Origin: a virus
DNA length: 64,000 bases
Strand: one strand, 5' to 3'
Virus record (IMG/VR): IMGVR_UViG_3300031088_000782
Coordinates: 107,383 to 171,382 of that record
Shown here: positions 42,966 to 62,185 of the stretch, one piece after another
Layout of the letters: each line of letters begins with the position of its first letter
Position numbering within the stretch: the first letter of the stretch is position 1
Notes under the pieces: model-generated
Seen by the model: only the letters and a program-made list of their open reading frames with translations
Database searches by the model: none
What the model was told of the DNA's origin: nothing
Program-made: the position numbers and the translations under genes

Positions 42966-44039
42966 ATGAAAAGTGAAATTGATTTTTCTTGGCAAGATTT
43001 AAGTGATGAAGAATTTATAAATCATTCTAAAAATTTTACTTCTAAAGAAAAATTTGCTCAATCCTATGGTTACAAGAAATTGAGCAAAAAACTCAATAAA
43101 AGATTTAAAAAACTTGGAATTGATTATAAAAAGATTATTGAACCTATCTCAAAAGAAGAGTTTAAAAAGATTACTGAAGAATCGAAGTCTATTACAGAAG
43201 TGATAGATAAAATGATAGATAATACTTCAAGCCGTAGAGCATACTATAATTTTGTTAAAAAATTGTCGAGAGATTATAATATTCCTTTGCCAAAATTTAA
43301 TTACACTGAATCTGCGCGTAGGGCGTTTAAAACAGTAACGATTCCCGATGAAGAATATTTTGCTAAAAACACTCTTCGACAAGGACCAGCGACACGAAGA
43401 CGTCTTATTAGAATGGGCTGGGAATATAAATGCTCTATCCCCGAATGTTTTCTTTCGCAAGATGTAGAAATTGTTGGAGAACAAGTTTTTTGGGTTGGAC
43501 AATTATTAACCTTACAGGTAGATCATATTGATGGTGATCATTTAAATAATGAGTTGTCTAATTTGAGATTTCTTTGTCCAAATTGTCATTCAGCTTCTTC
43601 TACTTATGCCGGAAGAAATAAAGTTTTCAACAATTCTTCTAAAAAGACAGAGAAAACTAATTCGTTAAATGGAAAGATAAAGTATAAGAAGAAGCCTGAC
43701 AATCTTTGCGAATGTGGAACAAAAATTTCAAGAAAAAGTAATTCTTGTATAAAATGCGAAGCTTCTAATAGAACAGGTGTATATAAGACAGATTATCCTC
43801 CACTTTCTGAAATGATTGCTAAAATTAAAGAATTAGGATATAGTGCTTATGCTAAGGAATTGGGTGTTTCTGATAATGGTATTCGGAAACATTTAAGAAG
43901 AAATAATATAAATCCTTTGCCTAAGAAAATTCATGTTTTTATTGTTAAAACTTGTATTGATTGTAATAATGAGATAAGTAACAAAACTGCTGTTCGTTGT
44001 CCTAAATGTGCTGTTGATTTCAGGTATTATAGACAATGA
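42966..44039 (+). CDS. HNH endonuclease with Zn fingers/HTH
   Basis: LQVDHIDGDHLNNELSNLRFLCPNCHS. Confidence 0.9.
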   Translation: MKSEIDFSWQDLSDEEFINHSKNFTSKEKFAQSYGYKKLSKKLNKRFKKLGIDYKKIIEPISKEEFKKITEESKSITEVIDKMIDNTSSRRAYYNFVKKLSRDYNIPLPKFNYTESARRAFKTVTIPDEEYFAKNTLRQGPATRRRLIRMGWEYKCSIPECFLSQDVEIVGEQVFWVGQLLTLQVDHIDGDHLNNELSNLRFLCPNCHSASSTYAGRNKVFNNSSKKTEKTNSLNGKIKYKKKPDNLCECGTKISRKSNSCIKCEASNRTGVYKTDYPPLSEMIAKIKELGYSAYAKELGVSDNGIRKHLRRNNINPLPKKIHVFIVKTCIDCNNEISNKTAVRCPKCAVDFRYYRQ

Positions 44040-45582: not shown

Positions 45583-45656
45583 TACTGTGTAGTTTAATGG
45601 CAAAACACTAGGCTCTTAAAGCTTAGCATATAAGGTTCGAATCCTAATCACAGTTG
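45583..45656 (+). tRNA. Atypical tRNA (enlarged anticodon arm; CTT or TTA register)
   Basis: ctaggc-tcttaaa-gcttag, imperfect T stem. Confidence 0.5.
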
Positions 45657-46965: not shown

Positions 46966-47805
46966 ATGAAAATTGACACAACTAGATATGGTTATATTTA
47001 TCGCATAACAAACTTATTAGACGGAAAGACCTATATTGGAAAACATAAGATTAAGAAAAATGAAGAGTTTTTTGACTATATGGGATCAGGAAGATTAATT
47101 TGTTATGCGATAAATAAATATGGAATAGAAAATTTTAAGAAAGAAATTATTTGCTATACAGATTTAGATGATTCTTTATCTATTTTAGAGTATAAATATA
47201 TTGATATTGAACTTTCAAATAATAAGTCAGAATATAATATACAAAGAAGCGAAAGTTCTTTAAAAACTGTTCTTGAAAACCTTGATTTTTCTGATGAAGA
47301 TTTATTAAAATGGTACTTTGAAGATGAAATGTCATACAATGATATAGCAATAAAACTTAATTGTTCTATTCCTACTATATATAATTATATGGAAAAGTTT
47401 AGACAAATTGATGAAAGATTTAAGAATATTAAACATGGTGATAATAGGGGAAAATCTACTTGGTCTCCAGAAGCAGCTCAAAAAGGACTTAGTATTTCTA
47501 ATAGAAAAATTAAATGTGAAAATTGTTCTAGACAAATAAGTTTTGCAAATTATTCTAGACATTTAAAAGCATGTTTGAATGGAACGAGCCAACATGAATG
47601 TTATTATAATAATTGCGAACAATTAATAGGATCAAAAAGCAAATTATGTAAAAAACATTTTTTAGAATCATTAAAAAATAATGATATTAACAATTCTAAA
47701 AATTTTGGCGACAGTGTTAAACAAGGTGGAATTACAGCATCTCATAATAGATGGCATGTTAAAAGAAATATAGTTAGTGATAAATGTTCTTTATGTAAAA
47801 GTTGA
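46966..47805 (+). CDS. GIY-YIG homing endonuclease (Seg-like)
   Basis: YGYIYRITNLLDGKTYIGKH, YMGSG, YGIENF, EYN. Confidence 0.88.
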   Translation: MKIDTTRYGYIYRITNLLDGKTYIGKHKIKKNEEFFDYMGSGRLICYAINKYGIENFKKEIICYTDLDDSLSILEYKYIDIELSNNKSEYNIQRSESSLKTVLENLDFSDEDLLKWYFEDEMSYNDIAIKLNCSIPTIYNYMEKFRQIDERFKNIKHGDNRGKSTWSPEAAQKGLSISNRKIKCENCSRQISFANYSRHLKACLNGTSQHECYYNNCEQLIGSKSKLCKKHFLESLKNNDINNSKNFGDSVKQGGITASHNRWHVKRNIVSDKCSLCKS

Positions 47806-50102: not shown

Positions 50103-50173
50103 GCAAGTGTAGTTTATTGGTAAAACACCTGCGCTCCAGCAGGAAAAGTAAGTTCGATTCTTACCGCTTTGCT
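50103..50173 (+). tRNA. Atypical Gly-like tRNA with 6-nt anticodon loop
   Basis: cctgc-gctcca-gcagg; bulged acceptor. Confidence 0.5.
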
Positions 50174-50487: not shown

Positions 50488-50664
50488 AATAAATTGAAGA
50501 ATAGTGATCCATGTTGGTAGAGATAGGGCACTAATGACCTAAGTTTTGTATAAGATGTTATTCAAAATATGGCGTGAATGTCCTAAAAGATGTAAAATAA
50601 AATGAAAAGATTATGGATGCAGTCTTATACACGCAGGTTCGATTCCTGTTATTCTTTAATTATT
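50488..50664 (+). ncRNA. Oversized tRNA-like RNA 2
   Basis: Long terminal stem, D-like arm, expanded centre, canonical T arm GCAGG-TTCGATT-CCTGT. Confidence 0.55.
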
Positions 50665-50801: not shown

Positions 50802-50875
50802 GGGGATGTTGCATAATGGTAGTGCCTCTGCCTTCCAAGCAGACGGTGCGGGTTCGATTCCCGTCATCCCCTCCA
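50802..50875 (+). tRNA. tRNA-Gly(TCC) with encoded CCA
   Basis: ctTCCaa. Confidence 0.92.
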
Positions 50876-51024
50876 GGGACGCGTGAACATTAAATTAAGT
50901 CCAAGTTGCGATGGATACTGGTTTAGTGCTGTTACACTAATATTTTAGACCGCTAATCTAAAATTCGAAATTCAGGACAGAAATGTTGCTGATACTTGGG
51001 ATTCGATACCCAAGCGTTCCACCA
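50876..51024 (+). ncRNA. Minimal tmRNA-like RNA
   Basis: GGGACGC/GCGTTCC-ACCA with G3:U70, T arm, no D stem, internal 10-codon ORF. Confidence 0.55.
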
Positions 51025-51160: not shown

Positions 51161-51235
51161 AGCTGTGTAGAGAAGTTCGGTTATCTCGTCAGGTTCATAT
51201 CCTGAAGATCGTGGGTTCAAATCCCACTCTAACCA
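51161..51235 (+). pseudogene. tRNA-Met(CAT) copy with broken acceptor stem
   Basis: Body identical to 39660 but acceptor AGCTGTG/TCTAACC mispaired. Confidence 0.65.
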
Positions 51236-51418
51236 CGATTGTCAAAAAATATTGAAAAATAATTTGACAATAATTATTAATTATGCTAAGATTAACTTGT
51301 TAAATCAAATTGAGGACTTATCAAGAAGATAACGAGATTATAGATTTGACAAGCGTTAAAAAATAGTTTATAATTAATAATATAAAGCGGTTTGGAAACT
51401 TAATAGTGGAAAATATAT

Positions 51419-52996: not shown

Positions 52997-53169
52997 CTTA
53001 GATGTAAATGCCGATTAGGTTAGTAACCTCCTGTGTGAGCACGACTTGGTAACGCCAAGATATTTACATCATTAAATTTTTGATAAGTTGAAAAACTTTG
53101 ATAAAAAATTTGACAAACGATATAAAAATTTGGTAAAATAAGTTTGTTAAAGAAAAAATAAAAGAATAT

Positions 53170-53243
53170 GGGGCTGTAGTCAAGTGGGTTAAGACATCTC
53201 ACTCATAATGAGAGGATCGGGGGTTCAAGTCCCTCCAGCCCTA
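53170..53243 (+). tRNA. tRNA(CAT), probable Ile2 (lysidine)
   Basis: ctCATaa, GGGGCTG acceptor, adjacent to tilS. Confidence 0.8.
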
Positions 53244-53256
53244 CCCATTAAATATT

Positions 53257-54460: not shown

Positions 54461-55322
54461 ATGGATATTGATTTTACAAAATATGGTTATATTTACCGAA
54501 TGACTAATTTAGTAAATGGTAAAACCTATATTGGTCAACATAAAATCAAATCAAATGAAAAATTCCTCGATTATATGGGCAGTGGAAGAATCATTCGCCA
54601 AGCTATTCATAAATACGGTAAAGAAAATTTTTCAAAAGAAATTCTTGAATATGCTATAAACAAAGAAGAGTTAGACATCTTAGAGAAGAGTTATATTCAT
54701 AAAGAAATTTTGAATAGTAAATCAGAATACAATATTGAATATAGTAGCTCTTCTTTACAATTTAAATTCAAAGAATTGTTAATAAACGATAATGATTTAT
54801 TAAACTGGTATTTTGATAAAAATATGAGCTATAAAGACATTGCTTTAAAACTTGGTTGTTCTGAACCTTCTATTTATAGATATATGAACAAATTTCGTAA
54901 ATCTGATGAAAGATTTAAAAATATTAAGCACGGAGATAACAGAGGAAAAAAGTGGATTTACTCCAGAAGAAAGAGAAAAAGCCATTAAGTCTGCTAAGGT
55001 AAAAGTTAAGTGCGAAAATTGCGGACATCCAATTAGTAAATTTAATTATCCAAAGCATTATAATGTATGTATTGACGAAAACTTTACTTATGTTGATGGA
55101 ATTAAGAAAAAGAAGTGTCCTGTAGATAACTGTGATACCTTAATCTACACTAAAAATAAAACTTGTAAAGAACATAGAACAGCAGGATCAAATTTGAATA
55201 ATATAAAAACTCCTGAAAGTTTACGAAAAGCTGGACTTTCTTCAACGCATAAGAAATGGCACGTTAATAGAGATATAATTAATCCTAACTGTCCTTTATG
55301 CAATCCTGTTGACAAACCTTAA
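54461..55322 (+). pseudogene. GIY-YIG endonuclease paralog split by a frameshift
   Basis: Homologous to 46966..47805 across two frames; one extra A in GGAAAAAAGT at about 54946. Confidence 0.75.
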
Positions 55323-56424: not shown

Positions 56425-57000
56425 ATGATTAATTGGAATATGAGAACATATACAAAAGAAGATTTTATAAAAGCATGGAATTCTTCTGAATCAATAAGAC
56501 AAGTATTGATTAAATTAGGGTTAAAGCCTATTGGTGGAAATTACCATACTGTAAAGAAAATGGCAAAAGAGCTAAATTTAAAAAATGATCATATGCTGGG
56601 GCAAGCTATAAATCGCGGAAAATCAATAGTTAATAGTAAATCTATTTATGATTACTTGACAAAAGACAGCCATATTTCTTCTTATCATTTAAAGAACAAA
56701 CTCTTTAAAGCAGAAATTTTTAAAAAAGAATGTTCTATATGCTATAATAGTATGTGGATGGGCAAACCAATTCCACTTGAATTAGATCATAAGAACGGGG
56801 ATCATTATGATAATCGTATAGAAAATTTAAGAATTTTATGCGCTAATTGTCATGCTCAGACAAAAAATTATAGAGGTAAAAATAAAAAGATTCACAGGAA
56901 TTTTAAAAACAATGCCAACAAATGTTTAGTTTGCTCAAAAGAAATTTCAAGAAACGCCAAAAAATGCAGGAAATGCGAATCAAATTCAAGAAAAACATGA
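56425..57000 (+). CDS. HNH endonuclease abutting tRNA-Leu
   Basis: PLELDHKNGDHYDNRIENLRILCANCHAQT. Confidence 0.88.
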   Translation: MINWNMRTYTKEDFIKAWNSSESIRQVLIKLGLKPIGGNYHTVKKMAKELNLKNDHMLGQAINRGKSIVNSKSIYDYLTKDSHISSYHLKNKLFKAEIFKKECSICYNSMWMGKPIPLELDHKNGDHYDNRIENLRILCANCHAQTKNYRGKNKKIHRNFKNNANKCLVCSKEISRNAKKCRKCESNSRKT

Positions 57001-59835: not shown

Positions 59836-60756
59836 ATGACTAAATATCACATAAATCCTGAAACAGAAAGAGTAAATATCTGTCGTGCTGAAAAGAAGTG
59901 CCAGTTTGCAGACGATCAAGGAAATGAACCACCACACTTTAACACTAAACAAGAAGCGCGCGCCTATAACGAAAATAATCTTAAAAAAGAATTAGGAACT
60001 TTCTCAACTATTTCAAAAACAAAAAATAGTAAAAAGAAAATTAACACTTTGACAGAAAACGAAAATATTGAATTAACAAATAAAATGGTTAATGAATTTA
60101 ATAAAATGTATAAATCTTTATCTAATACAGAACAAAGAGCAATTGATTATTACACTTTTTGTGGATCATCTTCAATGAATAGACTATTACATGGAACCCC
60201 AAGAGAAGATGAAGAAGCTTCAGTAGAATCCACTATGAAACATATTAAAAATCTTGATAATGTTATAAATAGACACTACGAGGAACACAAAGGAGAAAAG
60301 AAAACTTTGTATCGTTATCTTTCATTAGACAAGAATACTGATGTTAATGAATTTATAAAAGAAAATTTTCAAGAAGGTAAAGAATATTCTGATACCGGGT
60401 TTATGAGCACTACTGAAGATATTTCTTTTATTGCTGGATATGCTAAAAAGCACAGTAGAAACAGAAAGTTTGTTATTTTAGAGATGGAAACAGATAAAGG
60501 AATAAGTTGCCAAAAACAAGAAGAGCAAACTGGAACTATCCAAAGCTTTGAAAAAGAAAGATTATTACCACGAAATATGAAATTTAAAGTTGATGAAATT
60601 TTTGAATCAAATGTTAAAATTGATAAATCAAGAGAAAAACTTCATAAACAATTTGGGGGAAATGGTTATATGTTAAGCGAACACATTAATTATATTCCAT
60701 CTAAAAAATTCAATTTTATCAAACTAATAGAACAAGAGGACAATAAAAGTGACTAA
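59836..60756 (+). CDS. ADP-ribosyltransferase (VIP2/Alt-like R-S-E class) with shared N-terminal module
   Basis: AIDYYT..MNRLL, LYR, GFMSTT, EKERLLPRN. Confidence 0.85.
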   Translation: MTKYHINPETERVNICRAEKKCQFADDQGNEPPHFNTKQEARAYNENNLKKELGTFSTISKTKNSKKKINTLTENENIELTNKMVNEFNKMYKSLSNTEQRAIDYYTFCGSSSMNRLLHGTPREDEEASVESTMKHIKNLDNVINRHYEEHKGEKKTLYRYLSLDKNTDVNEFIKENFQEGKEYSDTGFMSTTEDISFIAGYAKKHSRNRKFVILEMETDKGISCQKQEEQTGTIQSFEKERLLPRNMKFKVDEIFESNVKIDKSREKLHKQFGGNGYMLSEHINYIPSKKFNFIKLIEQEDNKSD

Positions 60757-62185
60757 ATATCATATAAGCGATTCAGGTAAAGTAGTCATTTGTCGTGCAA
60801 CTAAAACTGTTTGCCCAAAAGAAAATTTTGACAGTATTGAAGATGCTGAAAATTTTAAAGAAACTCTATACAATAATACTATTCCAACTATGTCTAAACA
60901 GTCCAATAAGGGACTTAGGGAAGCTGAAAAGTATTATGGCGGTAAGTTCCTCACTTATCATAATATATCGCTTGAAAAAGGCGTAGAAAGCGTTTTAGAT
61001 GATTTGAAAAAGATAGGGAACCCATTAATTGTTGGCGGGGCTGTAAGAGATTCGTTTGTAGGATCAGAAAATAAAGATATAGATATCGAAGTTCATAAAA
61101 CAGATATAGACACACTTGTTAAAACATTGAAAAATGATGGATATATAGTTGATGAAGTAGGAAAACAATTCGGTGTTCTCAAAGTTTCTAAAAAAGGTGT
61201 TGTGAATGACTTAGACATATCTGTTCCTCGTAAAGAAAATCGTTTAGGAGCAGGTCATCGATCTTTTAATGTTGAAATGGATGAAAATATGACCGTTCAA
61301 GAATCTGCGGAAAGAAGAGATTTCACTTTCAATGCTGTCATGTATGATCATACAAGAAAAGTTATCATCGATCCTTCTGGTGGAAAGAATGACTTAAACA
61401 ATAAAGTCATTCGTCATGTTTCTGAGAAATTTTCTGAAGATCCTTTAAGAGCTTTGAGAGGATTTCAGTTTGCAGGTAGATTTGATATGACTGTTGCTCC
61501 TGAAACAGCAACTTTATGTAAAAAATTGAGAAATGAATATGAACACTTGTCAATAGAAAGGGTGCAAGAAGAGTGGGGTAAATTCTTCACTAAAAGCGCA
61601 CACCCAGCAAAAGGAATTCAAGCTTTAAAAGATATGGGATGGAATGACACTATACCCGGACTTCAAAAAGCATTAGACAATTCTTTTACAAAAGAATCTC
61701 TGAATAATCTCCCTACTGTCAGCAAGCAGAATAAAATAATTTTCGGATCTGCTGCTATCGCTCGAAATATGAATAATAACGAAAGAAAAAGTTTTATCTC
61801 TTCAACAGTCATTGGAAATAAAGAGCAATTAAAAACTTATACTCTTAGCAGTTTTGACAATAATGAAGCCAGAACTTCTTATGAAAGAAAAAAAATTGCT
61901 AAAAAACTTGAGAAAACAGGCTTTACCTTTAGAGATTATCATAATTTCTCTCAAATGAATAATGACAGCGAAGGTGTTAAATTAAGTGAGAAAGCTGTTG
62001 CTGAAGGTTTAGCGGATGGCCCTGAAAAAGATTTGATTGCTGGTAAAGATATTTTTTCTTTGACTGATAAAAAACCTGGTCCTTGGATGGGTAAATTATT
62101 GAATGAAATAAGAGACAAACAGTATCAGGGTGCTTTTTTAAATAAAAATGAAGCAATGATGTTTGCAAAAAGTAGAATACAGTGA
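60749..62185 (+). CDS. cca: Class II CCA-adding/tRNA nucleotidyltransferase with shared N-terminal module
   Basis: VGGAVRD, DIDIE, RRDFTFNA, EDPLRALR, SIERVQEE. Confidence 0.88.
   Translation: MTKYHISDSGKVVICRATKTVCPKENFDSIEDAENFKETLYNNTIPTMSKQSNKGLREAEKYYGGKFLTYHNISLEKGVESVLDDLKKIGNPLIVGGAVRDSFVGSENKDIDIEVHKTDIDTLVKTLKNDGYIVDEVGKQFGVLKVSKKGVVNDLDISVPRKENRLGAGHRSFNVEMDENMTVQESAERRDFTFNAVMYDHTRKVIIDPSGGKNDLNNKVIRHVSEKFSEDPLRALRGFQFAGRFDMTVAPETATLCKKLRNEYEHLSIERVQEEWGKFFTKSAHPAKGIQALKDMGWNDTIPGLQKALDNSFTKESLNNLPTVSKQNKIIFGSAAIARNMNNNERKSFISSTVIGNKEQLKTYTLSSFDNNEARTSYERKKIAKKLEKTGFTFRDYHNFSQMNNDSEGVKLSEKAVAEGLADGPEKDLIAGKDIFSLTDKKPGPWMGKLLNEIRDKQYQGAFLNKNEAMMFAKSRIQ

Follow-up and report, generated by a model that had tools for sequence, protein, structure and literature searches.

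What kind of RNA is encoded by the 149 nts that begin, without a single intervening base, after the CCA end of a tRNA-Gly(UCC) gene in the tRNA array of a 309,534-bp IMG/VR virus record? The element lies in the window analyzed here (a stretch of 64,000 nts, G000:C1:107383-171382), whose coordinates are used throughout unless another record is named. An initial annotation of this locus had proposed either a stripped tmRNA, tagging the products of stalled ribosomes with the non-canonical peptide AMDTGLVLLH, or a decoy for SmpB/AlaRS.

All ORFs of at least 150 aa in the window are found on the + strand. The same is true of the 64 tRNA genes detected by ARAGORN between 37.7 and 62.7 kb (63 tRNA matches in the window with Rfam), and the element, located between tRNA-Gly(UCC) and tRNA-Ala(UGC), has the same orientation (Table 1). 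In nearly all tRNAs of the array, only C74 is encoded behind the discriminator; the full CCA is present in 2 of the 64, namely the tRNA-Gly(UCC) that abuts the element and a CAU tRNA (53169-53247). Two further copies of tRNA-Gly(UCC) occur in the array without an abutting partner structure. The phage carries a gene for a CCA-adding enzyme (60749-62185 region) and also encodes, near the array, a TilS-type PP-loop protein; tRNA-related cargo is concentrated around the element's array.

Table 1. Positions, in the 64,000-nt window, of the element, of its parts and of the neighboring tRNA genes
Feature	Position	Strand	Basis or remark
tRNA genes of the array	37752-62737	+	64 genes
tRNA-Gly(UCC), encoded CCA at 50873-50875, abuts the element	50802-50875	+	ARAGORN; Rfam 67.7 bits
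Whole element, tRNA-like RNA gene, 149 nts	50876-51024	+	single copy in the 309.5-kb record
Acceptor 5′ strand GGGACGC (G3 = 50878)	50876-50882	+	pair probabilities 0.87-1.0
Hairpin A (element positions 8-60): base of 4 bp (GUGA/UUAC), helices of 10 and 5 bp, apical loop of 8 nts, AGUUGCGA	50883-50935	+	MFE and centroid folds
Proposed tag frame, most of which lies within the 3′ strand of hairpin A	50908-50940	+	stop lost in the relative
Hairpin B (element positions 67-89): 8-bp stem, 7-nt anticodon-like loop CCGCUAA	50942-50964	+	MFE and centroid folds; identical in the relative
Hairpin C (element positions 97-117): GAAA tetraloop, at the site of a class II variable arm	50972-50992	+	MFE and centroid folds; identical in the relative
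T arm TTGGG/CCCAA, 8-nt loop ATTCGATA	50996-51013	+	pair probabilities 0.75-0.93
Acceptor 3′ strand GCGTTCC (U70 = 51018), A73, CCA	51014-51024	+	sequence; pair probabilities

Several other features of the array and of the record are worth describing. Genes for HNH and GIY-YIG (SegE-like) homing endonucleases are found amid the tRNA genes (42966-44039, 46966-47805, 54461-54988 and 56425-57000), as segB is within the tRNA cluster of T4. ARAGORN also reports a tRNA with the anticodon UUA (“Stop”, reading UAA) at 45584-45655, which scores only 31 bits with Rfam, and, at 50103-50172, a tRNA-like gene whose “anticodon” has 2 nts (39.7 bits with Rfam). At its start, the CCA-adding enzyme gene overlaps an ORF that encodes a domain of the ADP-ribosyltransferase exoenzyme type (PF03496, E 2e-12); the two span 59836-62185. 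The window also encodes PBP, NlpC/P60 and G5 proteins. Elsewhere on the record, PHROG matches include RIIA, a primase, a DnaE-type polymerase, a ligase and a topoisomerase II, and recognizable structural genes are few among these matches. Downstream from the element, two strong sigma-70-type promoter matches are located at 51264-51374, after tRNA-Met (51165-51236) and before tRNA-Ile, one of which (51346-51374) is a perfect TTGACA-17-TATAAT. The position of these matches after tRNA-Met suggests that the Ser-Gly-element-Ala-Met group forms a transcription unit of its own.

The ends of the element had been described accurately. Its first base directly follows the CCA of tRNA-Gly(UCC), the two acceptor strands pair with a U at position 70 facing G3, A73 (51021) and an encoded CCA (51022-51024) follow, and the T arm is present, with an unusual loop of 8 nts. 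When the array was scanned for a 7-bp acceptor, a 5-bp T stem, any nucleotide and CCA within a span of 95-260 nts, two matches were obtained, the element and one AT-rich place devoid of a T-loop motif. Of 200 block shuffles of the array, 2 produced an acceptor, a T arm and NCCA in such a layout together with a loop of the TTCRA type. The tRNA-like ends of the element are real and beyond chance.

These ends carry the marks of alanine identity. Alanyl-tRNA synthetase (AlaRS) recognizes the G3:U70 pair of the acceptor helix, without regard to the anticodon. G3:U70 is present in 2 of the 64 array tRNAs, both of which are tRNA-Ala, and its combination with A73 occurs elsewhere only in these two genes and in the phage's own tmRNA. 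The whole alanine identity set of the element (G3:U70, A73 and 3′ CCA) is kept in its close relative, described below.

Between these ends, the RNA is predicted to be structured. The MFE fold of the element reaches -41.0 kcal/mol (z = -3.1), with 1 of 200 shuffles folding as well, and it retains the acceptor and the T arm with pair probabilities of 0.75-1.0. MFE and centroid concur on a five-way junction, in which the acceptor and the T arm are joined by three hairpins, one of 53 nts, one anticodon-like and one capped by GAAA. The 53-nt hairpin A is irregular and sits at the position of a D arm. The earlier statement that there is no D stem was only partly right: a 4-bp helix does occupy the D position, and it runs on into the long hairpin. 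In hairpin B, a C is found at the position of U33. With the 8-nt T loop and the absent D loop, no canonical tRNA elbow is formed, and recognition by RNase P could be weakened.

A relative about 95% identical was found on contigs of three runs from three studies (food fermentation, X3; abattoir, X6; plant, X10). It differs from the window at 18 of 338 positions, with 7 substitutions in the 149 nts of the element vs 8 in the 62 nts of the spacer that follows (Fisher p = 0.043). When the substitutions were placed by position on the element's own fold, 6 of the 7 fell on MFE-unpaired positions, which make up 55 of the 149 nts (binomial p = 0.012). Three of these six lie in the apical loop of hairpin A, two in the linker between hairpins A and B, and one in the T loop, where the T>C change at 51002 corresponds to the T54 position. 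The seventh changes C5 to U in the acceptor and keeps the pair (C5-G to U5-G). This distribution is modest evidence that the predicted fold is under constraint, and the structure of the element is supported by thermodynamics and by the seven substitutions of one close relative.

The same relative bears directly on the tmRNA reading. A minimal tmRNA that is alanylated, enters stalled ribosomes with SmpB and templates AMDTGLVLLH from the GCG at 50908 would make use of the alanine identity and of the encoded CCA. The frame GCG ATG … CAC TAA is indeed present in the element, with ten codons, a GCG start and a stop, the GCG lies in the apical loop of hairpin A in the MFE fold, and its change to GCA in the relative is synonymous. 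However, this is the only synonymous change of the frame. The T>C change at 50938 turns the stop TAA (50938-50940) of the relative into CAA, so that the frame continues for seven codons to a TAA at 50959-50961 with a different C-terminus, and 50911 A>T turns the ATG of codon 2 into TTG; the base before GCG differs too. The initial annotation had itself named a frame unconserved in homologs as evidence against tagging, and with the lost stop and the changed codon the frame is unconserved in the relative. Moreover, 3 of the 6 GCN codons of the element are followed by at least 10 sense codons, and a 10-codon open stretch after GCN is unremarkable here.

The models and the fold point in the same direction. 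ARAGORN calls no tmRNA on the element at default settings, with introns allowed or with thresholds lowered to 60-80%, and no Rfam family reaches its gathering score on it. In a search with 4227 Rfam families at E<=10, the element's strand was empty except for the tail of a Tymo_tRNA-like match (12.5 bits), which lies mostly over tRNA-Gly. The tmRNA model RF00023 has 19 matches over the whole record, none on the element, and it scores the ordinary flanking tRNAs at 19-23 bits. The positive control for the tmRNA models is the phage's own tmRNA, a canonical 353-nt molecule located about 20 kb downstream (G000:178464-178816), which scores 133.4 bits with RF00023 and encodes the tag ANANKNAYALAA (ARAGORN), of the canonical …YALAA type. 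Two P2-like helices and a hairpin resembling tmRNA helix 5 had also been proposed in the element. The complementary words exist, but their pair probabilities are 0.00-0.01 (0.00 for P2a and P2b), and forcing the acceptor, the T arm and both P2 helices in a thermodynamic test yields -27.2 vs -41.0 kcal/mol, 13.8 worse. In addition, the change at 50938 breaks the proposed helix 5 in the relative, and no pseudoknots are seen in the element's fold. With an ordinary tmRNA already present in the same genome, the tmRNA claim ends in a negative result, and we consider it highly improbable that the element tags proteins.

A related proposal keeps the tRNA-like part of a tmRNA and dispenses with the tag. 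According to PMC4131195, the tmRNA of mycobacteriophage DS6A has a sequence that is little more than a TLD, and a DS6A-like molecule is a strong inhibitor of tmRNA, which may act through the titration of SmpB (Mao et al. 2009, in PMC4131195). CDS-less tmRNA forms, including plastid ones of ~65 bp, are listed in PMC11915505. By analogy with what was proposed for DS6A, the element could be a TLD-like RNA which titrates SmpB and/or AlaRS, hence a decoy for trans-translation or alanylation, given that G3:U70, A73, CCA and the acceptor/T-arm stack are common to the element and to the tRNA-like domain of tmRNA. Nevertheless, RF00023 remains silent on the element while scoring the neighboring tRNAs, no family of the tmRNA clan matches it at E<=10, and two features of the phage's own tmRNA, a 5′ segment of the GGUUUCGAC type and a GGAC preceding the T stem, are without counterpart in it. 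A complete phage tmRNA with a …YALAA tag also fits poorly with the blocking of trans-translation. No SmpB gene was found on the record, SmpB binding in particular is without support, and such a decoy is distinctly unlikely.

Could the element then be a working, if aberrant, tRNA? The loop of hairpin B has the 7 nts of an anticodon loop, with purines at 37-38, and resembles the anticodon arm of the array tRNA-Asn. Read through its anticodon-like GCU, an alanine-charged molecule would decode AGY serine codons and act as a deliberate mistranslator, which the indifference of AlaRS to anticodons would permit. However, the fold departs from a cloverleaf, with a stem of 8 bp instead of 5, a C at the invariant U33 position, the 53-nt arm in place of the D arm, and linkers of 6-7 nts replacing the tight tRNA core. 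Neither RF00005 nor ARAGORN calls a tRNA on the element, the latter also with introns allowed or with lowered thresholds. Descent from an array tRNA was also tried and rejected: the best local alignment to the 64 tRNAs scores 22, within the range of shuffled sequences (mean 20.3, maximum 29). A mistranslating tRNA appears extremely improbable.

The distribution of the element was then considered. Exact words drawn from the stretch that is invariant in the relative had no match in IMG/VR (30-mer and 23-mer) and no match in JGI metagenome contigs or GTDB genome contigs (21-mer). The single IMG/VR match to a gapped acceptor-end pattern (L039) was rejected, as it is GC-rich, unrelated by alignment and not accompanied by a tRNA. 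No paralog was found in the phage's own record. Used as a query, TilS has no close relative in IMG/VR, and the DnaE-type polymerase has no GenBank phage match at >=60% identity; the polymerase query does retrieve two IMG/VR records, 63% identical in this protein, with 47-49 tRNA matches apiece. In these two records, no counterpart was found by BLAST, by R1, a covariance model of the element run on the whole records, or by R1 with filters off on their tRNA arrays; the best R1 match there, at 18.3 bits, is a class II tRNA-Ser. As far as seen, the element appears to be confined to this phage and its close relatives, and it would be either young or fast-evolving.

One of these two records is informative about the neighborhood of tRNA-Gly. 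In G002 (L027 9529-9680), a tRNA-Gly(UCC) is also followed by an encoded CCA and, from the base after this CCA, by a 72-nt structure with a 7-bp closing stem, AGACAGA/TCTGTCT (z -2.4). It is without T arm or CCA of its own, and may be a positional analog of the element.

The reading that we prefer, to which we assign a probability of about one half, is that the element is a processed tRNA-shaped RNA, likely charged with alanine, which mimics tRNA without decoding and is not a tmRNA. RNase P would cut before G1, simultaneously freeing the mature CCA end of tRNA-Gly, and at its 3′ end the element would be delimited by its encoded CCA. As no AlaRS gene was found on the record, the host enzyme would have to charge the element, and it would do so through G3:U70 and A73. 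Several features make decoding on the ribosome unlikely: arms of excessive length, a C at position 33, the lack of a D loop and an unusual T loop. The RNA could instead be a stable mimic which occupies or diverts a tRNA-binding factor, a role suspected but unproven for the species 1 RNA of phage T4. Charging by AlaRS together with a mimic or decoy role is plausible in view of the alanine identity set kept in the relative, and in this weaker form the decoy option of the initial annotation survives. Against this reading stand the change at the T54 position of the T loop in the relative, the fact that the only homolog is ~95% identical, a list of runs containing the stretch in which none is recorded as RNA, and a model of the T4 RNA (rnaC, below) that does not match the element.

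The excised RNA might also have no function in trans. Here, the element would serve processing mainly in cis, either as a dedicated module or as a tRNA gene that has decayed but is retained for this role. Its acceptor/T-arm helix would direct RNase P to cut immediately behind the CCA of tRNA-Gly(UCC). Such a role would suit an element that begins at the very base after this CCA, in an array where an encoded CCA is rare, and it would also suit the arrangement in G002, where a CCA-ended tRNA-Gly(UCC) is likewise followed by a structure closed by a 7-bp stem. On the other hand, a plain hairpin would suffice for this task, while the element keeps five helices, the alanine set and its own ACCA, and changes less than the adjoining spacer. 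No partner of this kind accompanies the two other tRNA-Gly(UCC) genes of the array. We regard the cis role as possible, if somewhat unlikely.

How does the non-decoding mimic that we prefer compare with known systems? With tmRNA (RF00023), the element shares G3:U70, A73, a 7-bp acceptor, a T arm, the lack of a functional anticodon arm and the fact of being phage-encoded, and a short frame starting from an alanine codon can be drawn in it. It is unlike tmRNA in having no model match, no D-loop-like 5′ segment, no supported P2 or pseudoknots, and an unconserved stop. Its 149 nts lie between the TLD-only or ~65-bp CDS-less forms and the 202 nts of the Carsonella tmRNA (PMC11915505 and PMC4131195); the DS6A TLD-only form was compared with the element by its published description.

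A second comparison concerns the minimal substrates of alanylation. The synthetic hairpins minihelix-Ala and microhelix-Ala, of 24-35 nts, were reportedly alanylated in vitro by Francklyn and Schimmel in 1989, and an acceptor/T-arm helix with G3:U70, A73 and CCA suffices for alanylation in vitro. The element has such a coaxial acceptor/T-arm helix with G3:U70, A73 and CCA. Unlike minihelix-Ala, it inserts ~113 nts of structured RNA (element positions 8-120) between the strands.

YrlA-type Y RNAs (RF02553) also combine a tRNA-like module with a non-coding RNA, phages included. In YrlA, the Ro-binding stem is made by the two ends of the RNA, with the tRNA-like part in the interior. An identity of this type was rejected for the element: the 8 weak matches of RF02553 on the genome all lie outside the element, and the record was found to lack a gene for a Ro/TROVE protein.

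The closest parallel in architecture is found in phage T4 (NC_000866), in which rnaC (species 1, 139 nts) and rnaD (species 2, 119 nts) are annotated as “small, stable RNA” beside the tRNA genes. Their biological roles are unknown according to a T4 review (PMC3014915), and the same statement on the small stable RNAs of T4 appears in a 2025 paper (PMC12685909). No Rfam family covers rnaC or rnaD. The fold of rnaC comprises an acceptor-like stem with two U-U mismatches, a hairpin of ~60 nts, a second hairpin and a canonical T arm, and in an alignment of five T4-like phages 19 pairs of its consensus structure are changed on both sides. Two of its loops are invariant across these five phages (L029 2909-3047, - strand, and alignment A2), the apical UUGACG of the long hairpin and, in the second hairpin, the CGUCAA within GCGUCAAC, and their 6-nt complementarity suggests a kissing-loop contact. 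The only loop-loop pairing of this kind seen by eye in the element is a palindromic UUCGA/UCGAA between the T loop and the linker of hairpins B and C, and it is weakened, again by eye, by the changes of the relative.

The element and rnaC are alike in several respects. Both are non-tRNA RNAs, in the range of 139-149 nts, whose genes lie within a phage tRNA cluster and share the strand of the tRNA genes. In both, the molecule is closed by an acceptor-like stem that stacks on a T arm; a hairpin of ~55-60 nts directly follows the 5′ strand of this stem, and another hairpin precedes the T arm. Both are without an Rfam family and are missed by tRNA finders. In contrast, rnaC has two U-U mismatches in its stem, no G3:U70, no encoded CCA and a canonical 7-nt T loop. 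The acceptor of the element is of the alanine type and perfectly paired, its CCA is encoded, its T loop has 8 nts, and it folds into one hairpin more than rnaC. A covariance model of rnaC built from 5 sequences (R2), run with filters off over positions 37000-64000 of the window, gives 78 weak matches, none on the element, for which no match is obtained at E<=10; conversely, the element's own model R1 scores T4 rnaC at 11.4 bits (E 0.24). The parallel with T4 rnaC is one of architecture and genomic setting, not of homology. The best match of the rnaC model in the array, itself weak (15.6 bits, E 0.014), is a segment of ~119 nts between tRNA-Gly(GCC) and tRNA-Ser(GGA) (50540-50658, + strand), which ends in a good T arm, GCAGG TTCGATT CCTGT. 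Its fold is unexceptional (z of -1.1), and it may be another tRNA-like non-tRNA.

A broader proposal can be built on this parallel, which we regard as speculative and unlikely. T4 and this 309-kb phage, which belong to unrelated lineages, would have independently built “macro-tRNAs” of 140-150 nts, in which an acceptor/T-arm core bears additional hairpins. RNase P would excise these RNAs, the one of this phage would carry alanine, and they would act in trans either as decoys for tRNA-directed host factors (e.g., defense nucleases) or as non-ribosomal donors of alanine. A dedicated donor for cell-wall or lipid aminoacylation was considered and set aside, as a FemAB-type transferase and an LPG-synthase C domain are absent from the record, although PBP, NlpC/P60 and G5 proteins are encoded in the window. 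Should the macro-tRNA reading be true, the species 1 RNA of T4 would gain a functional class. More simply, if the element is expressed, T4 species 1 RNA, a molecule of unknown role since the 1970s, would no longer be the sole case of its architecture, and the new case would be unrelated to it. Unlike the T4 RNA, the element offers a clean, testable handle in its alanine identity set and encoded CCA.
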